A stretch of DNA of 64,000 nt from an uncultured Rhodospirillaceae bacterium (GTDB lineage: Bacteria; Pseudomonadota; Alphaproteobacteria; UBA8366; GCA-2717185). The stretch lies in contig CAYYUG010000003.1 in assembly GCA_964474755.1 (NCBI GenBank), positions 7,580 through 71,579 on the forward strand. The letters run 5' to 3'. Positions 3,709 to 63,106 of the stretch are shown one piece after another. Both the position numbers and the translations under genes were made by a program. The first letter of the stretch is position 1, and every line of letters starts with the position of its first letter. The notes beneath the pieces were generated by a model. That model was not told the DNA's origin and ran no database searches. It saw only the letters and a program-made list of their open reading frames with translations.

Positions 3709-3872
3709 GGCTGTTTTTCTCCTGTACTGACTGTTCGGTTGTTGGCTGTCATTTTGCGCGTCCGACACTTCCCTTTCAAACCATGATCGTGATTTGTATT
3801 TACCGGGGTTGCGGGAAGCGGTTTCGGCGGCGATCATTCCCGCAAACAATTTAGTCATCGAAGGAGCCTGTC

Positions 3873-4793: not shown

Positions 4794-4808
4794 TCGGAGT
4801 TTGTCTGT

Positions 4809-46329: not shown

Positions 46330-46479
46330 CTGGTTAATACCAAACCTCTGCTCAGTTATTTTTTAGAAATTTTTGCAAACCAAGCAGAACAATCGGTCAT
46401 GCGAATTTTTTGGTAAGCAATTTAGCTTTTGTGTTTGCTAATATTGAGTGGGGGAGCAGGAAGGTTTCAGCAATGATAT

Positions 46480-46501
46480 AGCCACGTTCTACGTGGCTTT
46501 T
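46480..46501 (+). terminator. candidate rho-independent terminator (AGCCACG-ttcta-CGTGGCT followed by TTTT)
   Basis: A 7-bp stem, 5-nt loop and short T run, 150 nt downstream of the GGT-like stop. Confidence 0.4.
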
Positions 46502-46804
46502 GAAGGCTGAACTTAGTACCCCGACTATCATGAAGAAAGCGGCGACTAGATGGTTGCGCGGAAAACCCCTAAAAGACTTTAATTCAGGGCGCCTCCAGAT
46601 TGGTACTCAGGAAGATTATGTTACGCTGACTGGATCCACATTTTCCAGCCGCCGACAGCATTATTTTTTTCATAAAATAAGGGCCTTGCTGCTGATGCGA
46701 AATGACGGCGCTTAAACCTGTATTCGCACAGTTAGATAGCAATAATTGTGCGCTTTACTGATGGATAGAAAACTATAAGCAGTGGTTTACAGACTAACTG
46801 TGCC

Positions 46805-48223
46805 TTAAAGGTCCAAATGGGACCAAACGCGTTTGCTAGCTTCGTTCAAATTTCGCACAGCATTTGGCACATCGATCGTAAGGACTTCGCCATTTTCAAC
46901 GATGGTTTTGCCGTCGACGATGACCCGGTCAACGTCATCACCGGTCGCCGCCAATACCAGAAACTTAAAAGGGTCATACACGGGGGTGGCCTTTGGCGTG
47001 TCAATGCGAAGGAGCACGATATCTGCGCAACATCCTGACGCTAGGCGCCCCAAATCAGAACGGCCTAAGGCATCAGCGCCACCGGTTGTAGCCATCGCGA
47101 AAATATCTTCCGCAGGAGCCACTTCCGCGGCGTGTTCGACGATTTTGCAGACGACTGCTGCCATACGCATTTCACTGAACAAGTCGAATGGATAGGTATC
47201 GGTGCCAAGGCTTTGGCGTATGCCGAGTTCTTTATATTTGTGGATTGAGTTTATGACGCCGCCACGCCGCGCTTTGACCCAGGGCATATGGCATACTGTC
47301 GTTTGAGAATCTCGTAACGCAGCGATTTCATAGGCCGACATGCTGTTCATATCGCCATTATGCGACATGATTTGTCCGTGACCGATGATGAAGTCAGGGC
47401 CTAGCAGGCCGCAAGCCTCAAGATACTCGACGGTAGTTTGGCCCTCGATTTCGCCTACACGGCGGAATTCGTTAGGCGACTGACCTGCATGAATTTGAAT
47501 GGGAAGACTAAGCTCATCTGCCAACTCACGCGTTTTTTTTAATAAATCTGTATCGCAGGTGTCGACTTGTCCTGGCGCCAGCATTGTCCGGAGACGGTCA
47601 TCGAAGCGACCGTTCCACTGTTGGCAAAAATCCACACAAGCATCGAACCGAGTTCGACCTTGATCAGGATAATCCTTATAGAAAATACTACCGTCGGTAT
47701 CTTGCCCATAGTGGCGTGTTCGATAGCGTGGCCCGGAATAGCAGCGGAGGCCGGACCTACCACCAACATCCGCGACTTTTTCCGTTGTCTCTATGTTGCC
47801 ATTGCCGCCGATTTCATAATCATATCCGAGTTCAACCACGGTGGTCGAACCTGTGCGCGCGAGTTCCGCGAAGGCACATGCTGCCGCAGCAACTTGTGCT
47901 TCTGGGTCTGTTGCATGACGAACGTTTGGTAGCACTTTGTAGAGAGCAACGTGGTTTGTTGCTGCTCCTTTGACTGTCTTATCGCCGATATCTTCAAGAT
48001 ACCCTTTTGTAAAAGGTGTGTCGGTAACGTGAAGATGATTGTTAATTAAACCAGGAATAACTAATCGACCAGTGGCATCGATTACCTGATCCGATTTACC
48101 TTCGTAGGTTTGGCCAACGTATATGATCGTTTGATCATCGAAGACGACTTTCCCTTGTTCAACTATTTGGTGACTATCGTCAATCCAAGCGATCACTGTT
48201 CCGTTGCGAATTTCTGTTATCAT
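46805..48223 (-). CDS. amidohydrolase-1 superfamily protein (aminohydrolase/chlorohydrolase-like)
   Basis: 472-aa ORF. GRLVIPGLINNHLHV (HxH metal site) is followed by later HAGQ and GTD motifs. Its start overlaps the stop of the upstream Mo-subunit gene by 4 nt. Confidence 0.8.
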   Translation of the reverse strand: MITEIRNGTVIAWIDDSHQIVEQGKVVFDDQTIIYVGQTYEGKSDQVIDATGRLVIPGLINNHLHVTDTPFTKGYLEDIGDKTVKGAATNHVALYKVLPNVRHATDPEAQVAAAACAFAELARTGSTTVVELGYDYEIGGNGNIETTEKVADVGGRSGLRCYSGPRYRTRHYGQDTDGSIFYKDYPDQGRTRFDACVDFCQQWNGRFDDRLRTMLAPGQVDTCDTDLLKKTRELADELSLPIQIHAGQSPNEFRRVGEIEGQTTVEYLEACGLLGPDFIIGHGQIMSHNGDMNSMSAYEIAALRDSQTTVCHMPWVKARRGGVINSIHKYKELGIRQSLGTDTYPFDLFSEMRMAAVVCKIVEHAAEVAPAEDIFAMATTGGADALGRSDLGRLASGCCADIVLLRIDTPKATPVYDPFKFLVLAATGDDVDRVIVDGKTIVENGEVLTIDVPNAVRNLNEASKRVWSHLDL

Positions 48224-50535
48224 CGGTCTTGCCCTTTTTGAGCCTGTTTAATTACTCGCCAAACGCGTTCTGGGGTGGCCGGGCCTTCGAAACTGTGGAT
48301 GTTCAATGGCGCAAGGGCATCACTAATCGCATTTGTGATGGCAGGAAAACCGGCAATCGCGCCAGCTTCACCGCAGCCTTTTACACCTAAGGGGTTGGTT
48401 GTGCAGTCGACACCGTTGAAGATCACACTTAAAGGAGGAATATCTGTAGCACGAGGTAAGGCATAGTCGAGTAAAGAACCGCTCAGCAATTGGCCTGAGA
48501 TATCCTGATATACCGCATGTTCTAGTAAAGCTTGGCCAATGCCCTGTGCGATTGCACCGTGAACTTGGCCGCTAGCAACCATGGGATTAATGATTGTGCC
48601 GTAATCATCGACGGCACCGTATCTAACCACATCGACCTTGCCGGTATCAGGATCAATCTCGACTTCGGCGATGTGACAGCCATTGGGAAAGGTCATATGT
48701 TTGCGAGTGAATTCTTGTGACGTGTCCAGTGTGCTCAAGTCTGAGCTCGCATTTGTCTGACGCGCAGCTCTCGCAACCTCGAATAAATCGATCGCCCGCT
48801 CTGATCCGGAAACACGATATTGTCCCTTTTTGTAAAAAATTTCGGTTTCCCTAGCCTGCAATAATTTTGCAGCGATGGGTTTGCCTTTTCCAATTATTTT
48901 TTCGATTGCTAAATACATCGCTGTGCCGCCCATATACGTCGCACGCGAACTTCCGTGGCCGCCCCCTTTGGAGATCAGACCGGTGTCCCCATGCCGGTAG
49001 CGGATTTTCTCAATCGGCACACCCAGAAACTCTGAAATTATCTGAGGAAATGTAGTTTCATGCCCTTGGCCAATAGATTGTGTGCCGGTTGTAAGTATCA
49101 GCGTGTCGTCCTCGAAGTTGAGTTCAACCTTCTCTTCAGGTGCTCCACCAGTCGCTTTGATGTGATAGGCGAAGCCCAATCCTAGAAGTCTAGCTCGCGA
49201 CATCGCATCTTGCTGACGTTTTGCAAAGCCGGATGCTGCCTGCATTGCGCGGTTGAGATTTTTGGAGAACTTCCCGCTGTCAACATAGGTCCCGGTTATG
49301 CTGGTAAATGGTGTAGTTTTGCGCATATTTCGTCGACGTAACTCGGCTCGGTCAATTCCCATTTCTCGGGCTGCACAATCTATCAAACGCTCTAGTACGT
49401 TGACTGCTTCAGCAAATCCCGGGCCTCGGGTTACCCCAATTGGCACGGTATTAGTGGTTACCGCCCCGATTGAGAGATAAATTTGAGGAATTTCGTAGAC
49501 CGTACCCGGAAGCGACGCATATTGGTCGCTGCAAACACGGCCTGAAGAGCCGCAGAGATAGGCTCCAAGATTTGCCCAACTCCCGATACGGAGGGCCAAA
49601 AAGTGCCCGTCGGCGTCTAAAGCCAGTTCAGCATCGGCTAAATGATCGCGCGCTTGATGATCGGAGACGAAACCCGCCATACGTTCATTGATCCATTTAA
49701 CAGGGCAGCCGGCAACACGGGCGGCCCAAAGCAATAAGACATGCTCGGGATAAGCGAAATTCTTTAAGCCGAACCCGCCGCCCACGTCGGGTGCAATAAC
49801 TCGGACATTTTCATTGTCGACGCCCAGCGTCTCAGCGATACAGTCCCTTCCTGCATGGAGACTTTGACTAGAGATGTGGAGCGTATAACGCGAAGATATC
49901 TGGTTAAAAAAACCGACGCCACCACGTGGTTCCATCGAATTAGTGATTACTCGATGATTAGTAAGACGGAGCCGCGTCAAATGAGAGGCGGTTCGAAAAG
50001 CTTGTTGGCTTGCATTTTCGTCCCCGACTTGCCAACGAAGAATTACATTGTCTGGGATGTTATCGCTGATTTTTGGTGCGGATTTGGAAAGTGCAGAACT
50101 AATGGATGTAATGGCTGGCAACGGCTGGAACTCAATCTCGATACGCTCGGCTGCATCACGCGCTATTGCTAGGCTGCGCGCCACGACCGCAGCGACGGGT
50201 TGACCGACATAGCGAACGCGATCCGTTGCAAGGGGCGGATGAGGCAAATAGGAGAAGGGTTCGCCGTTGCGAAAATTTTCCCGAACATACGGCTCCATTG
50301 GTTTGATGCCTGCGGCTATTTGGTCTGTACCTTTGAGAACCGCTAATACCCCAGGCAAATTTTCAACTGCGTCCGATTTAATGCTCCGAACTTTGGCATG
50401 GGCATGGGGTGATCGAAGAATGCAAAGGTATGCCAAATTCCCAAATGGGAGATCGTCGACAAATTGGCCTTTGCCAATTAGAAAACGCCTGTCTTCGGTT
50501 CGTTCGGGCGAGTCTCCGATTCTAACCCTTGGCAT
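48220..50535 (-). CDS. xanthine-dehydrogenase / CoxL-family molybdopterin-binding subunit
   Basis: 771-aa ORF. FLIGKGQFVDDLPFGNLAYLCILRSPHAHAKV is the typical N-terminus of aldehyde oxidase/XDH a/b-hammerhead plus molybdopterin-binding subunits (PF01315/PF02738). Confidence 0.85.
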   Translation of the reverse strand: MPRVRIGDSPERTEDRRFLIGKGQFVDDLPFGNLAYLCILRSPHAHAKVRSIKSDAVENLPGVLAVLKGTDQIAAGIKPMEPYVRENFRNGEPFSYLPHPPLATDRVRYVGQPVAAVVARSLAIARDAAERIEIEFQPLPAITSISSALSKSAPKISDNIPDNVILRWQVGDENASQQAFRTASHLTRLRLTNHRVITNSMEPRGGVGFFNQISSRYTLHISSQSLHAGRDCIAETLGVDNENVRVIAPDVGGGFGLKNFAYPEHVLLLWAARVAGCPVKWINERMAGFVSDHQARDHLADAELALDADGHFLALRIGSWANLGAYLCGSSGRVCSDQYASLPGTVYEIPQIYLSIGAVTTNTVPIGVTRGPGFAEAVNVLERLIDCAAREMGIDRAELRRRNMRKTTPFTSITGTYVDSGKFSKNLNRAMQAASGFAKRQQDAMSRARLLGLGFAYHIKATGGAPEEKVELNFEDDTLILTTGTQSIGQGHETTFPQIISEFLGVPIEKIRYRHGDTGLISKGGGHGSSRATYMGGTAMYLAIEKIIGKGKPIAAKLLQARETEIFYKKGQYRVSGSERAIDLFEVARAARQTNASSDLSTLDTSQEFTRKHMTFPNGCHIAEVEIDPDTGKVDVVRYGAVDDYGTIINPMVASGQVHGAIAQGIGQALLEHAVYQDISGQLLSGSLLDYALPRATDIPPLSVIFNGVDCTTNPLGVKGCGEAGAIAGFPAITNAISDALAPLNIHSFEGPATPERVWRVIKQAQKGQDR

Positions 50536-51044
50536 GATTTGGCTTCTTATAATTCAGTAAAGGCGGGCACTTCATTCTTGTAGATATCAAAAACCCAAGC
50601 AAATTCGTTGCTCTCTAATAATTCTTTGAACTTACTAATGTTGCAGCGCCACTATGATGCGCTATCGTAAACTTGGAGAAAAATCGAGGCCCTCAGAAAG
50701 ATCCGCATGCCTTTTGCGTTGTAGCCTTAAATTTCCCTAATTCGAAATTTTAGAGAACAAATACGGCACCTGTCGTATTATCGAGAATACCGTAATAACG
50801 GTGATGTTTTTCTGTTTTTAAAGTCAAATAGAATATTTGGCTTTATTGTCTGTTGTCTCGGCCTTTGATAGTCCATGGTTGACACAACTGACGGCTTTTT
50901 TGAATATGCACAGGCCCCTTTTTTATAAAAAAATGCTGAATTATTACAGGCCTTTAAGCTTTAAACGCAGAAACTTAAACAGCAATTCTTGAAACTGATC
51001 GGCCTCTGAACGATTTATCTTTAGTCATCACTTATATGTTACAC

Positions 51045-51122
51045 TGCAGAGGTAGCGAAGCGGTAGGGTCAACTGGATAACCGATCGAGACCAACCCAGT
51101 GGTTGCGAGCTTCTTACCTGCA
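51045..51122 (+). ncRNA. candidate structured 5' leader upstream of selD (unclassified)
   Basis: Hand-folded interrupted helix: 51045-49/51118-22, 51052-55/51114-17 and 51057-61/51109-13, enclosing an inner 5-bp stem 51072-76/51096-100. It ends about 15 nt before the purine-rich AGGAAAAAA that precedes ATG 51150. I recognise no known riboswitch class. Confidence 0.2.
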
Positions 51123-51149
51123 CGAGCGATTTAACTCAGGAAAAAATTT

Positions 51150-52199
51150 ATGGATATAAAAACCCCCCGTTTAACCACCCTTTCTCATGGTGGTGGCTGA
51201 GGCTGTAAAGTAGCACCGTCGGTGCTCAACGACATTCTATCAAAACTTCCGCCGCAAGCGGCAAATCCTGCTTTGCTTATCGGTCATGAAACCGGCGACG
51301 ATGCGGCAGTCTTTAAAATAAATGACGAGCAAGCGGTTGTCGCAACGACCGACTTCTTTATGCCAATTGTTGACGATCCATATGACTATGGTCGGATAGC
51401 AGCAACTAATGCGCTGTCCGATGTATACGCTGTCGGCGGTACGCCGATTTTGGCGCTAGCGATTGCAGCAATGCCGATGAACCAGATGTCGCCTGATACT
51501 ATTCAAAAGATTTTATCCGGTGGTGCGCAGGTTTGTGCGAATGCAGGGGTCCCGGTAGCAGGTGGCCACACGATCGATGCGGTAGAACCCATTTACGGCC
51601 TTGCAGTCGTTGGATTAGTGCATCCGGACCGTATTAAGCGAAACTGCGAAGCGCAGGAAGGCGATGATCTGATCCTGGGCAAAGCGCTCGGTGTCGGTAT
51701 CCTTGGTGCAGCTATGAACAAGGATGAACTTGATCCGGAAGGCTACCGCCAGATGGTTGAAACCGCCACCAAGCTGAATGCCGTTGGCGCTGAACTCTCT
51801 AAGTTGCCAGGCGTTCATGCTCTAACTGACGTAACTGGATTTGGGTTAATTGGACACCTGCTTGAGATCTGCCATGGATCTAATTTGGCTGGAGCCGTTA
51901 ACTGGAACGACTTACCGATTTTGCCCGCCGCCCGGGACTATGCGGAGCGTGGTTACAACACTGGGGCCGCTGGCCGAAACTGGCAAAGTTTTGGACATGA
52001 TGCGACACTGCCAGTTGGTATTTCGGATTGGCAAAAGAACTTGTTGACCGACCCACAAACGAGTGGTGGTCTAATGCTGAGTTGCACGCGTGAAATGACT
52101 GGTGACGTTCTCAATATCTTTAATAGCAATGGCTTTGCCGATGCCACTAAGATTGGGCAGATGCAGGATGGAAGGCCGCATGTCACTGTAACGCTATAG
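51150..52199 (+). CDS. selD: selenide, water dikinase (selenophosphate synthetase), selenocysteine-containing form (Sec at codon 17)
   Basis: ORF track entry 51222..52199 extended upstream in the same frame. ATG 51150 gives MDIKTPRLTTLSHGGG-TGA-GCKVAPSVLNDILSKLP. This matches the SelD N-terminal loop (E. coli SHGAGCGCKISPKVL), with TGA at the catalytic Cys/Sec position. The rest (TTDFFMPIVDDPYDYGRIAATNALSDVYAVGG, GGHTID, MTDVTGFGL, DPQTSGGL) is collinear with SelD. Confidence 0.85.
51212..51226 (+). promoter_or_regulatory. candidate bacterial SECIS hairpin (AGCACC-gtc-GGTGCT)
   Basis: A 6-bp perfect stem starts 11 nt after TGA 51198..51200. This position is consistent with bacterial SECIS elements, which lie immediately 3' of the recoded UGA. 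Confidence 0.5.
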
Positions 52200-52408
52200 A
52201 ATTACCGGTCTACGTACGAAACGTTGCTGAGCGGTCCATCGGCCGATGTTCTGGAATTGCTTTATTGCCATTTGGCTGCGGAACAATACGTATTGTCGCT
52301 GGAATTCTGAGGGATTGTGAAATTAATCTTTTGTTGAGCTGGTCTGTTTTCCTAGGAGCGCTATCAGCGGGATTAACAAGAAAGATTTCCAATTAAAAAG
52401 TTAAATCA

Positions 52409-53176
52409 TTGAATTCATTACGTTTATATTTCCATCCGGCAAGTAGTGCATCGATGCGTGTGACACTCTATTTGCGCTGCCGGGCCATACCGACTGATCA
52501 CGTTGAGTTGGTCAGCACCGGGTTGGAAACCGACCATCGCGGGATCCTGGTTTTTACGATGCCTAAAGACGACCCGGAAACCGTGAAGATTGGAACGACG
52601 GAGCTTTCGGCTTTTAACCCGGAGGGGCGAATTCCTGTTCTACTTCTACCTGATGGAAGAAAGTTGACGCAGTCCGGACCAATCATTGACTATATCGAGG
52701 AATGTAGTCAGGACATTCTTGGTCCAGAATTACTGCCACAAGATATGTGGCTTCGTGCTGAAGCTCGACGCGTGATGTGGATTATCGCTGCAGACACGCA
52801 GCCCTATCAAAATATTCCCTTTATCATACAAGCTATTGGCGAATGGGGGATGGTGAAGGCAGATCCCACTATTCATCCTCTTCGACTGCATTTCATCCGT
52901 CGTGAATTCGGGGCGTTGGAGGGAATTATTAAGAATACCGCTGGGCATTTTTCTATTGGTGATGATGTTACGCTGGCAGACTGTTTCCTCGTGCCACAAA
53001 TACGGAATGCTTTGTTGGCTGGGATCGATATACAACAAGAATTTCCCACGATGGGACGCGTCTGGAAAAATCTAATCGACGTTGCAGAGGTTCGCGCGGT
53101 GCTCGATGAGGCAGGGGGCATCGTGCAGCCCTTCGCGTTCGATCCCGATAAGTTCGAAGTCTACGCTAAACTGTAG
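52409..53176 (+). CDS. glutathione S-transferase fold protein (zeta / maleylacetoacetate-isomerase-like)
   Basis: 255-aa ORF with a TTG start. LRLYFHPASSASMRVTLYL, NPEGRIPVLLLPDG..LTQSGPIIDYIEE and a C-terminal helical domain fit the GST N and C domains. There is an apparent insertion between beta2 and the NPxG segment. Confidence 0.6.
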   Translation: MNSLRLYFHPASSASMRVTLYLRCRAIPTDHVELVSTGLETDHRGILVFTMPKDDPETVKIGTTELSAFNPEGRIPVLLLPDGRKLTQSGPIIDYIEECSQDILGPELLPQDMWLRAEARRVMWIIAADTQPYQNIPFIIQAIGEWGMVKADPTIHPLRLHFIRREFGALEGIIKNTAGHFSIGDDVTLADCFLVPQIRNALLAGIDIQQEFPTMGRVWKNLIDVAEVRAVLDEAGGIVQPFAFDPDKFEVYAKL

Positions 53177-53212
53177 GCTAAAAACGGCTACCGTGAGGGA
53201 CAGCGAAAAGCA

Positions 53213-54241
53213 CTAGCTTTCTGTTGAGGTGTAGTAAGTTCCCTTGCCCTCCTGCGGCAAGATCCCTTCGCCCTTGTGAACAATAACCCCTGCTGCTGAT
53301 GGGCGATCGTCTTCTCTAAGCCAGAGCCTGAGTATATGTCGTCTTAACGCTGGATCTGTTGCGTCCTCGAAGGCGGTTCTTGTGTGTAAGACACAGCAAT
53401 TGTTTGTGAAGCTAGCTTCGCCAGGCTCGATTGTCAGGTTCAGCTTGAAATCTTCCCGATTGGCCAAGCTTTCGAAGGTATCGAGGGCTTCAATCTCGTG
53501 ATCGCTGAGAGACACATGTCCTTCTTCGACGGCCAGATCGATGTAACCGCGAATACAGATGACACTGGGAACCCCATCTGTGATTGAAATGGTTGGAATA
53601 CGTTCGGGTGTGACGATAGGCTCTCCCGGAGGTTGCTCGCCAAAACGATGATGATGGAAGCCGCTGTATAAAGGTTCGACAAGTTCAGGATTTGAGGCCA
53701 GCATTTCGTTGTGGACGGCAAGTGCGCTCGCGTAACCGCTGATCCCTCCCTTTACCGCCTTACGCAAGCATAACATGCCGATATGATCGCATCGGTCAGT
53801 GTGAAGCTTCAATTCTCGGCTGCTGCGGTATGCTCGCTCGTTCCTGTCACTTCCCCCAACATTGACGACATCTGCAATTAACTCGCCGTTGGCGCTTTGC
53901 GAGACAGGCCGGCCAAAATGCGTGCCCAATCCTAAAAACAGAAGCCTAATATCTTCCAACGCCATGCGATCTGTCGGAAACCCTCGAAGCATCAAAAGAC
54001 CACGACCCTGTTGTATTTCACGACGCCAGGATTGCACGTCCTCATATATCGTTTTTAAGGGAAATGTCAGCGGGTTCAGTTCTTTATGGGCGGCTCCTGA
54101 CTTTTTGAATGAAGCTGTCTCCGATTCTAAGGCGTTGATTTGAGTCGATGAAAGGTCGATCGAAAAATCGTCTTTGGAGTTGAAATCGGTTGCCTTCCAA
54201 CATGCAGGATGGTCTATCGGCTGCGCCGTCGCGTGAGGCAT
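53213..54241 (-). CDS. TauD/TfdA-superfamily (clavaminate-synthase-like) Fe(II)/2OG dioxygenase
   Basis: ORF 53213..54298 (TTG) trimmed to ATG 54241 (GGAG upstream). LLMLRGFP, LKLHTDRCD (HxD) and NCCVLHTRTAF are typical of CAS-like members of PF02668. Confidence 0.7.
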   Translation of the reverse strand: MPHATAQPIDHPACWKATDFNSKDDFSIDLSSTQINALESETASFKKSGAAHKELNPLTFPLKTIYEDVQSWRREIQQGRGLLMLRGFPTDRMALEDIRLLFLGLGTHFGRPVSQSANGELIADVVNVGGSDRNERAYRSSRELKLHTDRCDHIGMLCLRKAVKGGISGYASALAVHNEMLASNPELVEPLYSGFHHHRFGEQPPGEPIVTPERIPTISITDGVPSVICIRGYIDLAVEEGHVSLSDHEIEALDTFESLANREDFKLNLTIEPGEASFTNNCCVLHTRTAFEDATDPALRRHILRLWLREDDRPSAAGVIVHKGEGILPQEGKGTYYTSTES

Positions 54242-54562
54242 TCCAAAACTCCGGCAGTTGCTATGTTTTTGCAATGACAACGTGTCTAATGATGGCAAGT
54301 AAAAGGGCCGAAAACAACGTCATGAGGCGCTTACATTAAAAAATTTTTACTCATATGCATCCAACTTTACATTTTGTATAGGAAAATTGCGCAGGGTTGG
54401 CGTTCAAATCATTTTATTCGGTTGCTGAAGAGCCGCACCGGACCTGAGCTAGTCGAGCCAAAGGGACTGGTATCGATGCGCCGATGAAGGCTGTCACACT
54501 AATGGATGATGGTTTTGTTTTTTCTTGCCATTCTTTCGTTATCAGACCGTCTTGGTCGGCAG

Positions 54563-54997
54563 TTAGTTTGTCGAATTTTGCTTTGTTCTCGTGCTGAGTT
54601 TGTACGTGACCAGTCCTTGAGCGATGTCTCTGTCTTCTGTGTCGCACACATTGATTTCGACAAACACTGTGGACCTTCCGCGGCGTTTGACTTTGGCATC
54701 GGCGATCAAGTCGGCTGATTTGCCAGGGTTAAGAAAATTGCAGGTCAATGATATCGTTGTTCCCCACGCGCCCTTATCCAATCCCTCATATGACCAAGCT
54801 GCCGCTGTCGCTGCATTGTCAATTAACGTGGTAATTGCACCACCATGGACACGACCTACTTCGTTTTGAACGGCGCCATCGGTCGGCATGCGAACGATGC
54901 AATTACCCTCCGATGCGTCATCAATCGTCATTCTCATTTGTTTGCCAATACTGCCTGTGACTATCTTCTCCGCCAGCGCTCGGTATTTAGCTTTCAT
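54563..54997 (-). CDS. PaaI-family (hotdog fold) thioesterase
   Basis: ORF 54563..55057 trimmed to ATG 54997 (AGGAG upstream). It contains GRVHGGAITTLIDNAATAAAW. Confidence 0.75.
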   Translation of the reverse strand: MKAKYRALAEKIVTGSIGKQMRMTIDDASEGNCIVRMPTDGAVQNEVGRVHGGAITTLIDNAATAAAWSYEGLDKGAWGTTISLTCNFLNPGKSADLIADAKVKRRGRSTVFVEINVCDTEDRDIAQGLVTYKLSTRTKQNSTN

Positions 54998-55134
54998 ATG
55001 TATCGCTCCTGATGAAATTTTAGCAGCAGTATGCCGAAGCGATCCGTTTGAGACCACGCTTCCCCTCCTCGTATTGCATCGGAAGGTTTCAGCATTCTAG
55101 GTTGGCGTGCATTTTAGTTGGGGTGATCAAATAG

Positions 55135-55629
55135 ATGGCACAAGAATTTCTCCTATCGAACGCAGATAAGTTTGTCGGACAGCAGATTGCTCTCACGGAC
55201 TGGTTAACGATCGATCAGGAACAAGTAGATCGTTTCGGAGAAGTTACGCGTTGGACGCCATGGATGCATACTGATCCAAAACGATGTGCTGAGGAAAGTC
55301 CTTATGGAGGCACTTTGGTGCATGGCTTCTTCATCGTCAGTCTGATTACATATTTCATGGAAGGTGCCGGCGTTCGACCCAAGGATGGTGCCTATTCATT
55401 GAACTATGGCATGGACAAGGTCCGGGTGCTGCGACCTGTCATTACGGGAGATGGAGTGCGTATCCGTGATCGCGTCAAGCTGATTGGGGTGACGGATAGG
55501 GGGGATGCTAAACGCCTGTTAAAAACTAGTCACGAGTTTGAGGTCGAGGGTCAGCAAGGTCCGTCTGTCTACGTGGAATATTTGAACTTCTGGTTTCCAA
55601 AATCTACAGATACAACCTTTAACCAATGA
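55135..55629 (+). CDS. MaoC-like (R-specific enoyl-CoA hydratase, NodN-like) hotdog dehydratase
   Basis: 164-aa ORF with FGEVTRWTPWMHTDP...GGTLVHGFF. Confidence 0.7.
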   Translation: MAQEFLLSNADKFVGQQIALTDWLTIDQEQVDRFGEVTRWTPWMHTDPKRCAEESPYGGTLVHGFFIVSLITYFMEGAGVRPKDGAYSLNYGMDKVRVLRPVITGDGVRIRDRVKLIGVTDRGDAKRLLKTSHEFEVEGQQGPSVYVEYLNFWFPKSTDTTFNQ

Positions 55630-56249
55630 GAGTAGCTACAGTGAAGGTAGAGTTCCATTTCGATTTCGGCAGTCCCAACGCCTATTTTTGTCATAAAATC
55701 ATTCCAGATATCGAAAGCCGTACCGGTGTTCCTTTTGAGTATGTTCCGGTTCTGCTCGGTGGCGTGTTCAAGCTTACGAAAAATCAGTCGCCGATGGTCG
55801 CTTTTGCCGGCATCAAGAACAAACAGGAATATAATCGCCTGGAAACACAACGCTTTATCATGAAACACGATTTGACGGCGTTCAACCGTAATCCACATTT
55901 CCCAGTAAATACAATTCAGATCATGCGGGGGGCTATCGCTGCGCAAATAGACGGTTTTTTAGAATCTTATGTAGATACTGTGTATCACCATATGTGGGAA
56001 GACCCCAAAAAAATGGATGAACCGGAAGTCATCCGGGCTGCTCTTAGCGGGTCAGGATTGGATGGTGACATGTTTATGGCTCGTATCCAGGATCAGGCAG
56101 TAAAGGATCGTCTTCTAAATAATACGGAAGCGTCAGTTGAGCGCGGAACATTTGGGAGCCCAACGTTCTTTGTGGGAGATGAGATTTATTTTGGTAAAGA
56201 TCGCTTGGGAGACGTTGAGGAGGCAATTCTTGCAAACTTCCGAAGCTAG
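55626..56249 (+). CDS. 2-hydroxychromene-2-carboxylate isomerase / DsbA-like thioredoxin-fold protein
   Basis: 207-aa ORF overlapping the upstream stop by 4 nt. FHFDFGSPNAYF and GTFGSPTFFVGDEIYFGKDRL are typical of the HCCA isomerase/GST-kappa family (PF01323). Confidence 0.75.
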   Translation: MRVATVKVEFHFDFGSPNAYFCHKIIPDIESRTGVPFEYVPVLLGGVFKLTKNQSPMVAFAGIKNKQEYNRLETQRFIMKHDLTAFNRNPHFPVNTIQIMRGAIAAQIDGFLESYVDTVYHHMWEDPKKMDEPEVIRAALSGSGLDGDMFMARIQDQAVKDRLLNNTEASVERGTFGSPTFFVGDEIYFGKDRLGDVEEAILANFRS

Positions 56250-56258
56250 AAGGCGAGA

Positions 56259-57296
56259 ATGAAAACATCAATTTCAATTGGCGCGTATGGCCGCCGAGAT
56301 ATCAAAGATGTGATGGAGTTCGTCGTTGAGGCGGAGCGGCTTGGTGTCGATCATGCTTGGTCTGCGGAGGCTTGGGGCACAGATGCGGTCACGACGTTGG
56401 CATATCTTGCCGCACGGACCTCTAATATCAAGCTTGGCACCGGCATCATGCAAATTAGCGCCCGCGTCCCCGCTATGACAGCTATGACTGCATTGTCACT
56501 GAACCGTCTTTGCGATGGCCGATTTATCCTCGGTCTAGGTGTTAGCGGGCCTCAAGTTGTCGAGGGACTTCAAGGTGTGTCTTACCAGGCACCGCTAACT
56601 CGTCTGAAGGAGAACGTTGAGATTATCAAAATTGCCTTTAAAGGCGAGAAGGTTGTTTATGACGGCAAGTACCATGTGTTACCGCGGCCCTATGGGGAAG
56701 GGAAGGCGATTAAGCTGGAACATTCACCCGCTGATATCCCTATCTTCCTGGCGACTTTGGGTCCAAATGCGCTCGAATATACCGGTGCGGCAGCAGATGG
56801 CTGGCTAGGGACTTCTTTCTCGCCGGACAATGCAGAGGCGCACCTTTCGTACATTCGAAAAGGGGCGGAGAGCGTTGGGCGTTCCCTGGACGACATAGAA
56901 CTGCACGTGGCGTGCGGAGTGGACATCGGAGAGGATGTCGAGGCGTTAATTAACGCGCGCCGGGCGGGGGTTGCCTTCCAGATGGGCGGGATGGGGTCTG
57001 CGACCACGAATTTTTATAATGATGCCTTCAAGCGCGCGGGTTACAGCGACGCTGCTACTGAAATTCAGAGGCTTTGGGTCGATGGCCGACGCGATGAAGC
57101 GCGCAAGATCGTACCCAATGAAATGATTACACAGTTCGGGGCTATCGGTACGCCAGATATGGTCCGTGAGCGCTTCAAGATATACAAAAAAGCAGGTGTC
57201 GACTCGTTAAGTCTCCGTTTCGACAACGCGCTTGAAACAAAAGCTAAGATTGAAATGCTTGAGCAGGTGATGGACCTGCTGAAAGACTTGGCATAG
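56259..57296 (+). CDS. luciferase-like (LLM) flavin/F420-dependent oxidoreductase
   Basis: 345-aa ORF. GTGIMQISARVPAMTAMTALSLNRLCDGRFILGLGVSGPQVVEGLQG marks it as a paralog of 4809..5837. Confidence 0.85.
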   Translation: MKTSISIGAYGRRDIKDVMEFVVEAERLGVDHAWSAEAWGTDAVTTLAYLAARTSNIKLGTGIMQISARVPAMTAMTALSLNRLCDGRFILGLGVSGPQVVEGLQGVSYQAPLTRLKENVEIIKIAFKGEKVVYDGKYHVLPRPYGEGKAIKLEHSPADIPIFLATLGPNALEYTGAAADGWLGTSFSPDNAEAHLSYIRKGAESVGRSLDDIELHVACGVDIGEDVEALINARRAGVAFQMGGMGSATTNFYNDAFKRAGYSDAATEIQRLWVDGRRDEARKIVPNEMITQFGAIGTPDMVRERFKIYKKAGVDSLSLRFDNALETKAKIEMLEQVMDLLKDLA

Positions 57297-57341
57297 TCGG
57301 TACGTTCTATTCACCTTTCAACGCAATTAAAGGAACTATCC

Positions 57342-58373
57342 ATGCGTGGTGTTTTGGTCAAGGAGTGGACCGAATTCGAGAACCTCACTTTGGAGGAATG
57401 CCCGGCACCGGAACTGAAATCGGGCGAGGTGAGAATTCGGACTCAGTCTGCCGGTGTTAGTTTTGCGACCAGCCTCGTAGTGTCTGGAAAATATCAGCGT
57501 AAACCGCCGCTTCCATTCGTGCCAGGTACTGAAATTGCCGGTATCGTGACGGAGAGGGCAGACGGAGTTGTCCATGTTAAGGAAGGGGATAGGGTGTGCG
57601 CCGTTCTTGATTGGGGTGGTCTTGCCGAAGAAGCCGTCGCGCATGAAGTGAACGTGTTCCCCATCCCCAACAGTCTGGAATTTAATCGTGCAATCTGTCT
57701 AACGAATTCATATGGAACATCATACGCGGCTTTGTGTTGGCCACATCTACTGCGCATTCGCGAAGGTGAGACATTATTGGTGCATGGCGCGGCAGGTGGC
57801 GTCGGAATGGCGGCAATTGAGATCGCCAAAATACTCGGTGCTACCGTCATTGCGACGGCCGGTTCGGACGAAAAACTGGCGGTTGCGAAGGAACATGGTG
57901 CAGATCATCGCATTAACTATCGCAAGGGTGAATTTCGCAAGAAAGTTCTCGAGATAACAGATGGCCGTGGCGCGGATGCTATTTATGATCCAGTTGGGGG
58001 TGAAGTCTTCGCTCAATCACTACGCTGCATAGCGCCCGAGGGTCGTATTATGCCGGTAGGGTTTGCTGGCGGTAACATTCAGCAAATTCCGGCCAATATT
58101 TTGTTGGTGAAGAATATCACGGTCTGTGGTTTGAATATGGGCTATTATGTGGGTTGGAGCCCTGACGATGTCCGCCACGAATATGGAGATCGCATGCGCG
58201 CCTTGATGGCGCAACTATACGATTGGTACGAGGCGGGGGATCTAAATCCTGTCATATCCCATACATTTGCGCTGTCCGCCTTTCAGCAGGCGATGTCGGA
58301 AGTTTTGGGGCGCCGCTCGATTGGCAGAGTAGCCGTGGTTATGGATGAAGAGGCGCGACGGCTGGGAAAATAA
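57342..58373 (+). CDS. MDR-family NADPH:quinone oxidoreductase / zinc-type alcohol dehydrogenase-like protein
   Basis: 343-aa ORF. It has VHGAAGGVGMAAIEIAK (AxxGxxG Rossmann) and a GroES-like N-terminal domain. Confidence 0.8.
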   Translation: MRGVLVKEWTEFENLTLEECPAPELKSGEVRIRTQSAGVSFATSLVVSGKYQRKPPLPFVPGTEIAGIVTERADGVVHVKEGDRVCAVLDWGGLAEEAVAHEVNVFPIPNSLEFNRAICLTNSYGTSYAALCWPHLLRIREGETLLVHGAAGGVGMAAIEIAKILGATVIATAGSDEKLAVAKEHGADHRINYRKGEFRKKVLEITDGRGADAIYDPVGGEVFAQSLRCIAPEGRIMPVGFAGGNIQQIPANILLVKNITVCGLNMGYYVGWSPDDVRHEYGDRMRALMAQLYDWYEAGDLNPVISHTFALSAFQQAMSEVLGRRSIGRVAVVMDEEARRLGK

Positions 58374-58585
58374 CGCTATAGAATCCAACATAGAGTTAGT
58401 TTGCCATCATAGCTTCGCTAACTTGCCGCCGGTTTCACTGCCGCTCAATTAGAGGACAAATACCGCGGAGTATTAATAGGAAGAGCAAATTAAGGGCTCT
58501 TATCTTTGGGTTTAGTGAATTTTTTAAGCCACAAATGAATGGCTATGAGAAACAAAAAAGGATGTATGAGAGTTCGTTGCTTCTA

Positions 58586-59788
58586 TTATTCCGATAGCCA
58601 GCGAACGATCTGCGTTGCCGCCTTTACCGTTAATACGATCTTCTCTTTATCAAGTGGTAGCGGCTGAGATGAAAATTTCGTAATTACACTTCCGCTTTGC
58701 CGGTCCACGAACAGAAATTGTCCGTGTACCCCGAACGCGAATATCAGCGGTGTTTCGCCATGCAAGGAATACCATTGGTTGCGGTAGGAAATATCGAGGC
58801 CTGGAAAATATTCCGCCAAAGTCCCGTCTTTCCATGCTTTGGTGCTGCCATTGCGTTCGATATCATCGATCCAGTTTTCTGGCACGATCGACGTTGTACC
58901 TCTCGATCCGCCCTTTGCAACCATGTGTCCAATCCTCGCCAGGTCTCTGGTCGTAGTGCACATGCCTCCGGCACAGCGAGGGGCCCCAAGTCTATCCACA
59001 GTGATATAAGCATTCTCAGTGGTCCCCAGTAATTGCCAGAGGAGAGTGCTCATCAGGTCCACATATCGCCGACCAGTTGCGCGTTCCATGACCCAACCCA
59101 GCAAATCATTATTTGGCGATACGTAATTTATTGGTCCGCCATGCTCTCCCGAACGGCCCTTTAATTGGTTGTAAAAATTACGCAGATCCGTTGCAGTTTC
59201 GCCAGGTTCTAGCGGGTTCCAATTGGTTGATTTTCGGTAGTCTATTATCAGCCCTGTGGTTGCCATATAGTCTTCGTCAAAATCGATGCCGACCCGCATG
59301 TCGAGGAGATGACGAACTGTTGCGTCACGATAGGCAGTCTCCGAAATCTCGGGTACAATTTCCGATACCAATTGCTCTGTATCCAAGTCTCCTCGTTCTA
59401 TAAGGATACCCGCTAAAAGAGCGAGCATCGACTTGCTGACGGACATTAATATGTGTGGCGTCCGTTGTGTCATGCCCGTCATATATTTTTCGAATACAAT
59501 TTTTTCATCGTGCAGGATCACGATCCCATCCGTTTGCGTTTCTTCGAGAAACCTATCGAATGAGATTAAATTACCGTCATTGTTTTCGATTTGGCAGTCG
59601 CCAAAATTGGCAGGTTCGGACACAAGTTCCAGAAAGTCACTCGTCGCAGCAGCGATATCGGCTGATGGGACGATTTCGCGTACGTGTTGGAACCCCCATT
59701 TGTTAAATGGCGGTGATCGCCAATTTGCAAGCGTAACTTGCGTATTAGGTGAAGGTGGAAAACCATTCATAATGGAAGCTTTGTTCAT
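58586..59788 (-). CDS. serine hydrolase, beta-lactamase/transpeptidase-like (class C / 6-aminohexanoate-dimer-hydrolase-like)
   Basis: 400-aa ORF with the SxxK motif in LMSVSKSMLALLAGIL. There is no signal peptide. Its ATG directly abuts the stop of the upstream TauD gene. Confidence 0.75.
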   Translation of the reverse strand: MNKASIMNGFPPSPNTQVTLANWRSPPFNKWGFQHVREIVPSADIAAATSDFLELVSEPANFGDCQIENNDGNLISFDRFLEETQTDGIVILHDEKIVFEKYMTGMTQRTPHILMSVSKSMLALLAGILIERGDLDTEQLVSEIVPEISETAYRDATVRHLLDMRVGIDFDEDYMATTGLIIDYRKSTNWNPLEPGETATDLRNFYNQLKGRSGEHGGPINYVSPNNDLLGWVMERATGRRYVDLMSTLLWQLLGTTENAYITVDRLGAPRCAGGMCTTTRDLARIGHMVAKGGSRGTTSIVPENWIDDIERNGSTKAWKDGTLAEYFPGLDISYRNQWYSLHGETPLIFAFGVHGQFLFVDRQSGSVITKFSSQPLPLDKEKIVLTVKAATQIVRWLSE

Positions 59789-60679
59789 CTATGCCACCTC
59801 TAAGGCAGTACCAGCCTCATCCACAGTCGGTCCTATCCCAGCAACTGTAGTGCGGTGCATGATACGCCGAAACCGATTAGCTTCGTAAGTAGTAGCTCGA
59901 TGAAGGACACAACGGTTGTCCCATATTACAAAGTCTAATGGCTGCCATTGGTGGATGTAGACGAACTCCGGTTGGCTAGCTTTGGCGACGAGGTCACGAA
60001 GTAGATTTCGACCTTTTTCTACTGGCCATCCGATAATGTAGGAAGCGTGTGAACCGGTGTAGAAGTTCTTCCTACCGTTCGCTGGATTGGTTCGTACCAC
60101 GGCATGCTGCACTGGAGGTACTTCTGCAAGGGTCTCCTTTGGTGCCTTATAACCCTTCACTAGGCTCCGCGAGTAGCCATAGTCATGTTCGGCAACAAGT
60201 CCGTCGAGTTGCCGTCGTTCTCTTTCGGGCATTGCTTTATACGCGGCTCTGCAGGATGCAAACTGAGTATCACCGCCCCTTGGCGGAACCTCTCGACCAG
60301 ATAGCATGGAACAGTAAGAGGGTATAGGCTTGAAGGAACTGTCGGTATGCCACATTGCGTTGCCACTATTTGATTTGAGGCGCGGATGCCCTGGCGGAAA
60401 GATTTTATTAGTCCGAAAGTCTACGTTCGTAATGTTGGCCACAGGAACGCCGCCATCACCTTCGCGTTTGTAAACAGTTGTTTCGAGTGGTCCCCACTGC
60501 GCGCTGAATTCGGTTTGTGAAACGTCATCGAATTGCTGATCGCGAAACACGAGTACCGAGTAATCATCGAGACCGGCTTTGAGATCGTCTATTAGTGAGC
60601 CATTAACCTTGCTAGTGAGATTTACACCGCTCACTTCCGCTCCAATATGCGGGGTGAGTTTCTTCAATCCGAACCGCAT
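59789..60679 (-). CDS. TauD/TfdA-family Fe(II)/2OG dioxygenase
   Basis: ORF 59789..60727 trimmed to ATG 60679 (MRFGLKKLTPHIGAEV...). It has WHTDSSF (HxD) and WQPLDFVIWDNRCVLHRA. Confidence 0.85.
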   Translation of the reverse strand: MRFGLKKLTPHIGAEVSGVNLTSKVNGSLIDDLKAGLDDYSVLVFRDQQFDDVSQTEFSAQWGPLETTVYKREGDGGVPVANITNVDFRTNKIFPPGHPRLKSNSGNAMWHTDSSFKPIPSYCSMLSGREVPPRGGDTQFASCRAAYKAMPERERRQLDGLVAEHDYGYSRSLVKGYKAPKETLAEVPPVQHAVVRTNPANGRKNFYTGSHASYIIGWPVEKGRNLLRDLVAKASQPEFVYIHQWQPLDFVIWDNRCVLHRATTYEANRFRRIMHRTTVAGIGPTVDEAGTALEVA

Positions 60680-60751
60680 GCCGGTTGGCCTTTCGAACGT
60701 TGCGCCTGCGACGAAGTGAAGCAACAACCTCGCACCGACGCAAGGAGGTGT

Positions 60752-61621
60752 TTATTCGGAGGATGACTGGAACGGCACCGGATACTTATCCGGCGGCAGG
60801 AATACGGTCGTTCGCTTCATTAGGCGTGGGGTGTCCGGATCAAAGGGCTCGCGCTGGTGCAACACGCGGCAATTGTCCCATAACACGATATCACCGCGCC
60901 GCCATTCGTGTTGAAATACGAATTCTGGCGCGGTCATGTGGATGACGAGTTCATGAAGGAGGGTCTGACTTTCACTCGGTAACATGTTCTCGATGCCATA
61001 GGTTTGCAGTGGGTCAAGATACAGGCTCTTGCGACCGCTCTCCGGTTGCGTCAGTACCAAGGGATGGACGACGTCAGGCGTTAGGTCCCGAATTGCATGG
61101 ACGTCAGGTTTTTCGGTAATGTCGACAGAGAAGATCTGATAGGCGAACTTGCCGCGTAATCTATCAACTCTGTTTTTCATAACCTCTGACAATGTCTCGT
61201 ATGCAAGTTGCGTGTTGGCCCACGCTGTTTTACCGCCATTTTCCGGCACCTCGATCGCATATAGGATCGATCCTGTATCCGGCTTTGGTTTGTAGCAACT
61301 ATCCGTATGCCACTTCGCTTCGCCGCTGGCCAGCGCGCCAATATTTTGGCCCGACTCCAGCCGCAAGTTTGAGACTAAGACGATTTCTGGATTGGATCGC
61401 GATCGGATATCGGTGCGCACATGGATATTGATATCGCCAAATTTCTTGCTGAATTCGATTTGTTCGATTTCGTTGAGTAATTGGTCGCGGATCAAGATGA
61501 CCGGGTGCTTGATCCAGAGTGCGTTGATTGCCTTAACCGATGGGTCGTCCAGCGCCCTTAGATCAATGTCGAGTATTTCAACGCCAAACTGTGGATGAAG
61601 AGGGCGGGTGCTAAGTTTCAC
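60752..61621 (-). CDS. TauD/TfdA-family Fe(II)/2OG dioxygenase (tandem with 59789..60679)
   Basis: 289-aa ORF with WHTDSCY (HxD) and WRRGDIVLWDNCRVLHQR. Its start overlaps the upstream stop by 4 nt. Confidence 0.85.
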   Translation of the reverse strand: MKLSTRPLHPQFGVEILDIDLRALDDPSVKAINALWIKHPVILIRDQLLNEIEQIEFSKKFGDINIHVRTDIRSRSNPEIVLVSNLRLESGQNIGALASGEAKWHTDSCYKPKPDTGSILYAIEVPENGGKTAWANTQLAYETLSEVMKNRVDRLRGKFAYQIFSVDITEKPDVHAIRDLTPDVVHPLVLTQPESGRKSLYLDPLQTYGIENMLPSESQTLLHELVIHMTAPEFVFQHEWRRGDIVLWDNCRVLHQREPFDPDTPRLMKRTTVFLPPDKYPVPFQSSSE

Positions 61622-63096
61622 TGCACTGTTTTTCCGAACAACATGGTGTCTACTTTTTCCTCGACTACGGTGCCTGCAAAGAATTTAGGGTTGAGTGCCG
61701 TGTGGAGGCGCGCGGTATTGCCAAAAGTGAAGGCTTTGAATTGCGTCTCATCCAAGGCACCTTCCTCGACGAGTTCGAAGGCTTCTTCGAGAACACCGCG
61801 CATATCGATCACGTCGAAATGTCCGATGTCGGAACTGAACATCGGGTTCAGCCGTGTTTTCTCGTTGTAGGCCCAGGCAGCGGTAGGGTCGTCTGCTTCG
61901 CAGCCAAAGAAAAAGCGTTCCTGGAATAGTGTCCGCAGGTCGGACGCACTTGTGACGCCCGACGTGGCAAAATCGTCTAAGTCGATGCCGGTTTCGTGCT
62001 CTCGTTGATCCAGTGTGTTGGCTGTGTAGAAAGGTTTTAGCGTACTTGGACCAGCAGCGATTGCCTCAACTTTTCCCTCATAGGCGCTACCGCCGTACCG
62101 CTTCAGCAGAGATGCTATTTCCTCCAAGTCTAAATTGGCTGGGCTCAGGTTGGAGCGCATCGCTGTGTCGTTTCGCTTTTCCCAATGTCCGATCATATCT
62201 GTTAGTAAATTGCACGCCCAAGCAACACCCCCCTCCAACATACCAAACCGCAGCAAGGGAAAGCGTTGCAGTACGCCGCCAAAGAGCAGGGCTTTTGCGA
62301 AAACGTGGCTGGCACCTGCGAAATGGCCGATATGATTGAAAGTGAAATTATTCACCGAGGCACGACCTTCCCAGCCCATGCTGCTGGAATGTGATGTCAC
62401 TGCGACGCCGGCATCAAAGCAGGCTTGCCAAAACGGGTCATAGTCGTATGGGCTTTCCATCGCTAGACAATCGATATAATAGCCACCAGACGCGTAGTAA
62501 CCGCCAGTTTCTCCATTACTTGGATCGATGTCGAGTGGGCGTCGCACATGGTTGGCTATCATTATCGCCTTCATGCCGAGTTCATGTGTTGCGTGATGGA
62601 GTTCCTCGATCGCCTCACCAGGTGTGTGCATTGGAATTGTAGCAACCGGTGTCATGCGGTCGGAGAATGGTGCGAAGAGTTCAGCGTTCATCCGATTTAG
62701 CGCGCGGCAGATGGTCGGGCGTAGCTCGGGGTCAGGAATAGATCCTTGAACTAAGCCTAAAGTCGTGTAGACAATGGCAAAATCGATGCCGAACTCGTCG
62801 AGCCGCTCATACATCAAGCCCGGCGCCATCGCCGTCGCCTTGTCTAAAGTATTAGCCGGTTCGCCCCACCAGGTTGGGCGGCGCAATCGACGCGTAAATC
62901 TTTCCTCTGCAGTCATCCCGTACCAGGCATCTTCGTGTTTCTTGTTCTGTCGGAATTTTTCGACTGCGGCGTTGCCTCCTTCCTGCTTCAGAAAATCAAG
63001 AAAGATCGGGACTGGTTCGAGCCAGTGGCCGTCGGCATCGATAATGGGATGGCGAAGCTGTGCGTGAATTTCCGCTGAGCGTGTCGTTGCCGTCAT
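61618..63096 (-). CDS. amidohydrolase-2 (PF04909-like) metal-dependent hydrolase/decarboxylase family protein
   Basis: 492-aa ORF. The N-terminal HPIIDADGHWLEP is the typical metal-binding start of this TIM-barrel family. Confidence 0.65.
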   Translation of the reverse strand: MTATTRSAEIHAQLRHPIIDADGHWLEPVPIFLDFLKQEGGNAAVEKFRQNKKHEDAWYGMTAEERFTRRLRRPTWWGEPANTLDKATAMAPGLMYERLDEFGIDFAIVYTTLGLVQGSIPDPELRPTICRALNRMNAELFAPFSDRMTPVATIPMHTPGEAIEELHHATHELGMKAIMIANHVRRPLDIDPSNGETGGYYASGGYYIDCLAMESPYDYDPFWQACFDAGVAVTSHSSSMGWEGRASVNNFTFNHIGHFAGASHVFAKALLFGGVLQRFPLLRFGMLEGGVAWACNLLTDMIGHWEKRNDTAMRSNLSPANLDLEEIASLLKRYGGSAYEGKVEAIAAGPSTLKPFYTANTLDQREHETGIDLDDFATSGVTSASDLRTLFQERFFFGCEADDPTAAWAYNEKTRLNPMFSSDIGHFDVIDMRGVLEEAFELVEEGALDETQFKAFTFGNTARLHTALNPKFFAGTVVEEKVDTMLFGKTVQ

Positions 63097-63106
63097 ATCA
63101 CCCTCG

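Follow-up and report, generated by a model that had tools for sequence, protein, structure and literature searches.

Selenophosphate synthetase of an uncultured marine alphaproteobacterium: a selD gene with a predicted UGA-encoded selenocysteine and a candidate SECIS hairpin inside the coding sequence

The window analyzed here, a stretch of 64,000 nucleotides (nt) from contig CAYYUG010000003.1 of an uncultured marine Rhodospirillales-like alphaproteobacterium, carries at positions 51150 to 52199 a gene for the selenophosphate synthetase SelD (selenide, water dikinase). Our analysis indicates that this gene in all likelihood encodes a protein of 349 residues with a UGA-encoded, predicted selenocysteine (Sec) at position 17, placed in the N-terminal glycine-rich catalytic loop. 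The shorter open reading frame (ORF) of 325 amino acids, which begins at GTG 51222 and under which the gene is usually found, is an artefact of the UGA being taken as a stop. The features on which this reading of the frame is based are the following:

51150..52199, plus strand: selD coding sequence, 349 codons plus stop, codon 17 being a UGA predicted to be read as Sec; from frame reading, profiles and alignment
51138..51141, plus strand: Shine-Dalgarno-like AGGA, 8 nt 5' of the start codon ATG 51150
51198..51200, plus strand: in-frame TGA, predicted Sec17 codon, aligned with the catalytic Cys17 of E. coli SelD
51222..51224, plus strand: GTG used as start by the mechanical ORF list and by public gene callers, inside the 3' arm of the candidate selenocysteine insertion sequence (SECIS); rejected as a start

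Direct reading of the sequence gave a single frame from ATG 51150 to the stop codon TAG at 52197-52199, with one internal TGA. Sixteen sense codons, encoding the peptide MDIKTPRLTTLSHGGG, precede this TGA, and 332 further codons follow it in the same frame, opening with GCKVAPSVLNDIL; the codon of Lys20 is AAA at 51207-51209. The mechanical ORF list starts selD at GTG 51222, and the resulting 325-residue product is devoid of the Gly-rich loop, Sec17 and Lys20. An earlier reading of the bare sequence, referred to below as the original prediction, had already noticed that the supplied ORF misses the catalytic loop, and the positions it gave for the frame, the TGA and the hairpin proved exact to the base when the sequence was re-read. 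A six-frame scan of the window for TGA-interrupted ORFs returned 129 mechanical candidates and, besides selD, none with a redox motif or plausible continuity.

The identity of the product was assessed by profile searches and by comparison with the E. coli enzyme. Translated with the TGA as Cys, it scored 502 bits against the NCBIfam SelD equivalog NF002098 (cutoff 299), covering profile positions 4-344 of 347 and taking in residues that precede the TGA, and 415 bits against TIGR00476 (cutoff 125). Pfam recognized AIRS (PF00586, 97 bits) and AIRS_C (PF02769, 56 bits), the N- and C-terminal domains of the PurM-like fold. BLASTP against E. coli SelD (b1764, taken from NC_000913) gave 45% identity starting from residue 1, gap-free over the first 280 residues. 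Opposite the TGA stands Cys17, which lies in the E. coli segment YSHGAGCGCKISPKVL, and K20, D51, D68, N87, D91 and D227 (E. coli numbering) are all kept in the ungapped alignment. In the published SelD structures from E. coli and Aquifex, Cys/Sec17, Lys20 and the Asp/Asn residues have catalytic, metal-binding and ATP-binding roles. By its sequence, the read-through product is a full-length selenophosphate synthetase, and the two claims made for the protein beforehand, that the gene is a complete SelD once the TGA is read through and that the TGA stands at the position of the catalytic Cys, were both borne out.

The ortholog scan, which was restricted to one genome per species, returned 26 loci. 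Two of them belong to Flavobacteriales (42-43% identity) and have TGT (Cys) at the TGA position, while the other 24 come from metagenome-assembled genomes (MAGs) of uncultured marine Rhodospirillales, Rhodospirillaceae or Alphaproteobacteria that are 63-100% identical to the product of the window. The TGA is invariant in all 24 alphaproteobacterial orthologs, which derive from independent assemblies; two MAG chromosomes of 4.6-5.3 Mb, OZ243926.1 and OZ245815.1, are among the sequences with an ortholog. In each ortholog the frame opens 15-17 codons ahead of the TGA with an ATG that has a ribosome-binding site, and the residues RLTxLSHGGG precede the TGA, the AGGA/GGAG motif being as far upstream of the ATG as in the window. 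Over codons -10 to -1 the amino acids are invariant and each is encoded by two to five synonymous codons among the 24 orthologs, which shows that the stretch is translated and evolves under purifying selection. The original prediction had made itself dependent on residue conservation upstream of the codon equivalent to 51222, and the upstream peptide is indeed kept in the 24 orthologs.

These data bear directly on the alternative that the TGA is a true stop, the gene being a pseudogene or the sequencing or assembly being faulty, and that any functional protein is the 325-residue form from GTG 51222. Such a form is what mechanical ORF finding and all public gene calls give, and TGA is an ordinary stop codon in this genome. 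However, the 24 assemblies with the TGA are independent of one another, their proteins range over 63-100% identity, and ~100 metagenomic Sec-selD genes described below have the TGA as well. Since it recurs in dozens of independent assemblies, a sequencing error or a pseudogene can be excluded. The 16 upstream codons, conserved at the residue level with synonymous changes, argue that they are translated in frame with the rest of the gene, whereas the 325-residue product would be without the glycine-rich loop and without the residues that match E. coli Cys17 and Lys20. In addition, GTG 51222 has no ribosome-binding site and is situated within the frozen hairpin considered next. We regard the probability that the protein starts at this GTG as negligible.

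Reading the TGA as Sec would call for a SECIS element, which in bacteria is expected in the coding sequence downstream of the UGA. Two features of the window were assigned to such an element:

51210..51226, plus strand: nucleotide-invariant block GTAGCACCGTCGGTGCT with the candidate SECIS upper stem-loop; from ortholog codons, folding and comparison with the bacterial SECIS model
51201..51241, plus strand: possible lower SECIS helix, 51201-51207 with 51235-51241; from an RNAalifold consensus, weakly supported

The hairpin AGCACC-GTC-GGTGCT, which the original prediction had placed 11 nt past the TGA, was located at exactly this offset, at 51212-51226. Its stem of 6 bp (AGCACC/GGUGCU) is formed by 51212-51217 and 51221-51226, and the apical loop GTC comprises 51218-51220. 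The bSECISearch model (PMC13188914, Fig. 2 legend) describes an upper stem of 4-16 bp that carries an apical loop of 3-9 nt, whose first two positions include at least one G (usually G followed by G or U). The model places the loop at a distance of 16-37 nt from the UGA and asks for a minimum free energy (MFE) of -7.5 kcal/mol or lower. The loop of the window hairpin is 3 nt long (GUC) and opens with G-U, the stem has 6 bp, and 17 nt (51201-51217) separate the TGA from loop base 51218. The 43-nt element that includes the lower stem has an MFE of -11.2 kcal/mol, below the limit of the model, with a z-score of -1.5 that is not significant. For the 15-nt hairpin alone, -7.2 kcal/mol and a z-score of -3.4 were obtained, which is modest, as 2 of 200 shuffled sequences fold equally well. 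The hairpin is thus found where a bacterial SECIS was anticipated, with the features of the published model and with the offset of E. coli fdhF, although its significance comes from the comparison of orthologs and not from folding alone.

This comparison revealed an unusual pattern of codon usage immediately after the TGA. Codons +4 to +8 (GTA GCA CCG TCG GTG), each of which is at least four-fold degenerate, are represented by one codon each in 24 of 24 distinct sequences, whereas the ten other four-fold codons with an invariant amino acid within the first 50 codons use three to four third bases each. The frozen block of 17 nt at 51210-51226 is, at the nucleotide level, the signature of an RNA-level constraint imposed over the coding sequence. 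It might be argued that the block owes its conservation to something else than a SECIS, for instance to a protein-binding or regulatory site in DNA or RNA or to the codon usage of the VAPSV motif; within the lineage the block never varies and so offers no covariation. A constraint of this kind is difficult to reconcile with the freedom of equally conserved neighbouring codons at their third positions, and it was further weighed with Sec-selD genes from other lineages.

For this survey, metagenomes were scanned with the coding motif H-G-G-G-TGA-G-C-K, and the hairpin was left unconstrained. About 100 of the 120 matches proved to be true Sec-selD genes, with soil, freshwater, gut and marine samples as their sources, and the survey set, with the genomic orthologs included, consisted of 105 unique 60-mers. 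Ninety-nine of these form the hairpin in one of two registers: 47 in the register of the window (register A, loop at nt 21-23) and 52 in a register one codon later, with the loop GUU at nt 24-26 and a bulged A. A hairpin geometry displaced by 1 or 2 nt fits none of the 105 sequences. The loop in register A is GUC, GGC, GGA or GGG, and hence G-first, in 43 of 47 cases. Of the same 47 sequences, 36 have CG, 7 have GC and 3 have GU at pair 17-27, while at pair 18-26 AU is found 35 times, UA 9 times and GU twice; as assignment to register A needed at least five of the six pairs, the percentage of paired positions is biased, while the double changes are unbiased. The compensatory changes separate lineages with different peptides (VAPSVL versus LGPxDL).

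The Cys-type selD genes of E. coli and Flavobacteriales, which served as controls, pair at 2-3 of 6-7 positions. The presence of the hairpin in the UGA forms and the poor pairing in the Cys-type genes show it to be a conserved structure that is specific to UGA-containing selD. Since lineages with other peptides (LGPxDL, LTPALL) and different nucleotides keep a hairpin with a G-first loop at the same or a one-codon-shifted position by compensatory changes, and since the hairpin is missing from Cys-type selD, conservation of the block for a purpose other than SECIS function appears extremely unlikely.

Several classes of SECIS could be distinguished among the Sec-selD loci (L048-L167, e.g., L054, L072, L081, L098, L116 and L138), namely GUC at nt 21-23, GUU at nt 24-26 with the bulged A, GGUCC-GGN-GGACC, and an fdhF-like GGUC. 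The GUU class is mostly from soil and freshwater and usually has selU adjoining (56 loci); the class of the window is without adjacent selU. The metagenome scan also yielded a recurrent match of the motif outside selD, ...HGSRHGGG*GCKVYRAFRHRMGS, identical in four contigs from gut and other metagenomes (L051, L073, L087 and L162). One of the four is a 463-kb human-gut contig. This sequence shows no downstream SelD homology and is apparently a chance match.

Some observations weigh against decoding of the TGA as Sec through this hairpin. The 15-nt hairpin misses the model threshold of -7.5 kcal/mol by 0.3 kcal/mol. No change in the upper stem occurs within the lineage, and its covariation is contributed only by more distant Sec-selD genes. 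As to the lower helix, 79% of the cells pair and one pair alternates between CG and UA (7 sequences each), but the evidence is weak: two pairs depart by unpaired cells only, and the window sequence itself is mismatched. Rfam has no bacterial SECIS family from which a curated model score could be obtained, and Rfam searches returned no matches in the whole window at gathering thresholds nor in 50500-51400 at E<=10; these blanks say little about a SECIS either way, because no curated model of the SECIS type was available to match. Finally, tblastn with E. coli SelA and SelB, ARAGORN and Rfam did not find selA, selB or tRNA-Sec in the 64-kb window, a ~20 kb extension, or within 10 kb on either side of the 24 orthologs, suggesting that the Sec machinery is unlinked to selD in this lineage. 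The original prediction had expected these genes elsewhere in the genome.

The controls of these searches performed as expected: E. coli SelD recovers every locus, and one metagenomic contig, L099, yields selA, selB and tRNA-SeC(tca) beside a Sec-selD gene. On this contig of 7.9 kb (SAMEA5043665__coassemble_404), selB is located at ~3092-3877, selA at ~3949-4998, tRNA-SeC at 5296-5387, and the TGA of Sec-selD near 1566-1588. The SECIS of its selD has a GGUC loop identical to that of E. coli fdhF.

A second gene with an in-frame TGA was identified ~7.8 kb beyond the window on its right-hand side, in contigs that match it at 99.9% identity:

L040:1002-1553, minus strand, the same gene as L044:10001-10552, plus strand (window-equivalent ~71.5-72.1 kb): predicted selenoprotein gene of the UGSC family (PF24696)

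The in-frame sequence TGA GGT TCC TGT of this gene would read U-G-S-C. Its read-through product has 184 amino acids and matches the PF24696 model over positions 2-171 of 172 with 157 bits, and a hairpin with the G-rich loop GGGUCUA, beginning 17 nt after the UGA, follows. Public gene calls stop at the TGA and give a "hypothetical protein" of 99 amino acids (MEC9153291.1, MEC9153827.1). The MAG GCA_036138995.1 also has the UGSC gene, together with a copy of window positions 51619-64000 at 99.7% identity. In marine samples, proteins containing UGSC constitute a major selenoprotein family (PMC2398784). Since two recoded genes are found ~20 kb apart, the organism very probably decodes Sec.

The remaining alternative is that read-through of the selD UGA inserts Cys or Trp, with a suppressor tRNA, a near-cognate tRNA or a lineage-specific reassignment responsible, and that the hairpin merely stimulates this read-through. 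Two observations speak for it, namely the absence of the Sec machinery from all regions searched (window, extension and ortholog flanks) and the fact that Cys works at position 17 of E. coli SelD. Nevertheless, TGA is the stop of 12 of the 46 long ORFs in the window, indicating that the standard genetic code is used without a global reassignment. The geometry of the hairpin and its G-U apical loop are those of a SelB-binding SECIS, at the offset known from fdhF, and in the neighbouring UGSC gene the UGA occupies the defining residue of a known selenoprotein family. Moreover, the TGA of selD was kept over deep divergence although a one-base change to TGT or TGC would give Cys, and a Sec-selD gene with the same N-terminal motif adjoins selA, selB and tRNA-SeC on L099. 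We therefore consider insertion of Cys or Trp very unlikely and retain Sec as the predicted residue 17.

If the UGA is decoded as Sec, the decoding step would proceed via the hairpin as in E. coli fdhF, and by the same analogy we infer that SelB binds to 51212-51226. SelD would make selenophosphate for Sec synthesis and possibly for other uses of selenium. Since SelD itself would need Sec-tRNA(Sec), its own synthesis may depend on the available selenium through positive feedback. A shortage of selenium or of charged tRNA(Sec) would be expected to stop translation after 16 residues. Sec-SelD and its possible autoregulatory meaning have been under discussion since the 1990s, and Guimaraes et al. 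are said to have proposed in 1996 that a Sec-containing SelD makes its own synthesis dependent on selenium.

A more far-reaching idea, which we consider rather improbable at present, is that the lineage keeps the whole Sec apparatus mainly for SelD and a few small selenoproteins such as the UGSC protein, without a Cys-type SelD as backup. Were this the case, the loop would be obligatory and self-sustaining, SelD being needed for the Sec that SelD contains, and the dependence on selenium supply could be bistable and heritable. The invariance of the 17-nt SECIS down to 63% protein identity would then suggest a tight co-constraint with a lineage-specific SelB.

The main value of these findings lies in the correction of the annotation, by which a protein of 349 amino acids with a predicted Sec17 replaces one of 325 amino acids without the catalytic loop. 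The original prediction had ascribed the truncation to the supplied ORF track, and the same 325-residue call turned out to be general in public collections: this form of selD is present in 33 collection blocks (ENA, Logan, JGI and NCBI-derived), and all full-length members of the 90% cluster of the 325-residue product have 325 amino acids, the JGI name being "selenide,water dikinase". The same error affected the UGSC gene, where a predicted selenoprotein of ~184 amino acids was deposited as a hypothetical protein of 99 amino acids. Together, the two genes identify this marine alphaproteobacterial lineage, which is abundant and uncultured, as a probable user of selenium and decoder of Sec, a finding of relevance for trace-element ecology and for selenoproteome estimates from MAGs. 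Sec-selD in this arrangement is nothing new and occurs commonly among marine bacteria; the late start chosen by automatic callers is the only error.

The genomic neighbourhood of selD was also inspected, and the following features were recorded:

48220-50535, minus strand: large subunit of a CoxL/XDH-family molybdopterin hydroxylase, 771 amino acids, below all equivalog cutoffs
46805-48223, minus strand: chlorohydrolase-family amidohydrolase, 472 amino acids
50536-51149: intergenic region of 614 nt between the divergent Mo-hydroxylase gene and selD
53213-54298, 59789-60727 and 60752-61621 (all minus strand) and L040:4188-5018: four TauD-family Fe(II)/2-oxoglutarate dioxygenase paralogs within ~20 kb

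The Mo-hydroxylase and chlorohydrolase genes lie as a pair between a gamma-glutamyltransferase gene and selD. This pair adjoins selD in the window and in L001; the next closest species (L021 and L002) do not have it there, so that it looks like a lineage-specific insertion. A selenium-dependent Mo-hydroxylase trait was considered and rejected, as the synteny with selD is not conserved in L021 and L002; no search was aimed at yqeB/yqeC. On an ENA scaffold, L031:5260-7306 (SUTE22-1_SAMN10231916 scaffold_408), the region corresponding to window positions 46459-48527 shows two small rearrangements or gaps, is otherwise 99.6% identical, and has no Mo-hydroxylase gene called; the rearrangements are probably a scaffolding artefact or strain variation. 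The intergenic region 50536-51149 gave no Rfam match and no tRNA, promoter-like matches in it were no more frequent than in shuffled sequences, and its selD-proximal part is not conserved in the orthologs.

The selD region also contains a GST-like gene, along with several catabolic genes, TauD-family members among them. Interspersed among the TauD paralogs are genes for amidohydrolase_2, beta-lactamase-fold and luciferase-like monooxygenase proteins as well as two tandem GMC oxidoreductase genes. The TauD-rich region looks like a catabolic gene neighbourhood. A further 10 kb of the 165-kb contig contains hydantoinase, SDR, hydrolase and SpoU genes only, and a look-up of the protein encoded at 2027-2926, at the left end of the window, gave no record.

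Sec-containing SelD proteins have known precedents, an example being that of Haemophilus influenzae. The original prediction had referred to such variants, and they are in fact widespread: FdhA and SelD were described as the most widespread bacterial selenoproteins, and every Sec decoder without FdhA was found to have a Sec-SelD (Zhang et al., 2006; PMC1794560). The Global Ocean Sampling (GOS) marine metagenomes contained 357 Sec-SelD sequences in 40 samples, a number second only to that of SelW-like proteins (PMC2398784). The gene of the window resembles the catalogued Sec-SelD genes (PMC1794560; PMC2398784; PMC13188914) in its enzyme family, in the predicted Sec in the N-terminal Gly-rich loop (U-G-C-K), in the candidate SECIS within the coding sequence right after the UGA, and in its marine origin. 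Nothing essential sets it apart from them. This lineage has one particular hairpin class, AGCACC-GUC-GGUGCU, which is clade-invariant. In contrast to many Sec-selD genes from soil and freshwater, selD of this lineage is not beside selU.

With E. coli SelD, the product shares the catalytic loop SHGxG-[C/U]-GCK and the Asp/Asn residues. The E. coli gene differs in having TGC (Cys) at codon 17 and no downstream hairpin, with 2 of 6 positions pairing in the register of the window, and the synthesis of this Cys17 form is thus independent of the Sec machinery. The UGSC gene belongs to the same population as selD, was likewise truncated by gene callers and has the same spacing of 17 nt between UGA and loop, but it lies outside the window and encodes an unrelated protein of unknown function.

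The closest model for the hairpin is the SECIS of E. coli fdhF. Measured directly on fdhF, the minimal SECIS starts 11 nt after UGA codon 140, and the 11-nt rule reportedly goes back to Liu et al. in 1998. The minimal element is GGUUGCAGGUCUGCACC, given also as GGTTGCAGGTCTGCACC, and its short upper stem is the part to which SelB binds (PMC10945757). The window hairpin is likewise a stem-loop in the coding sequence with an 11-nt offset and a small apical loop containing G-U, but it differs in sequence, its loop is GUC (3 nt) instead of GGUC, its upper stem is without the bulged U, and the G-U of the loop is at nt 21-22 in the window hairpin and at nt 23-24 in fdhF. Taken together, these comparisons place the gene of the window as a straightforward member of the Sec-SelD class that is already known, with no new mechanism.

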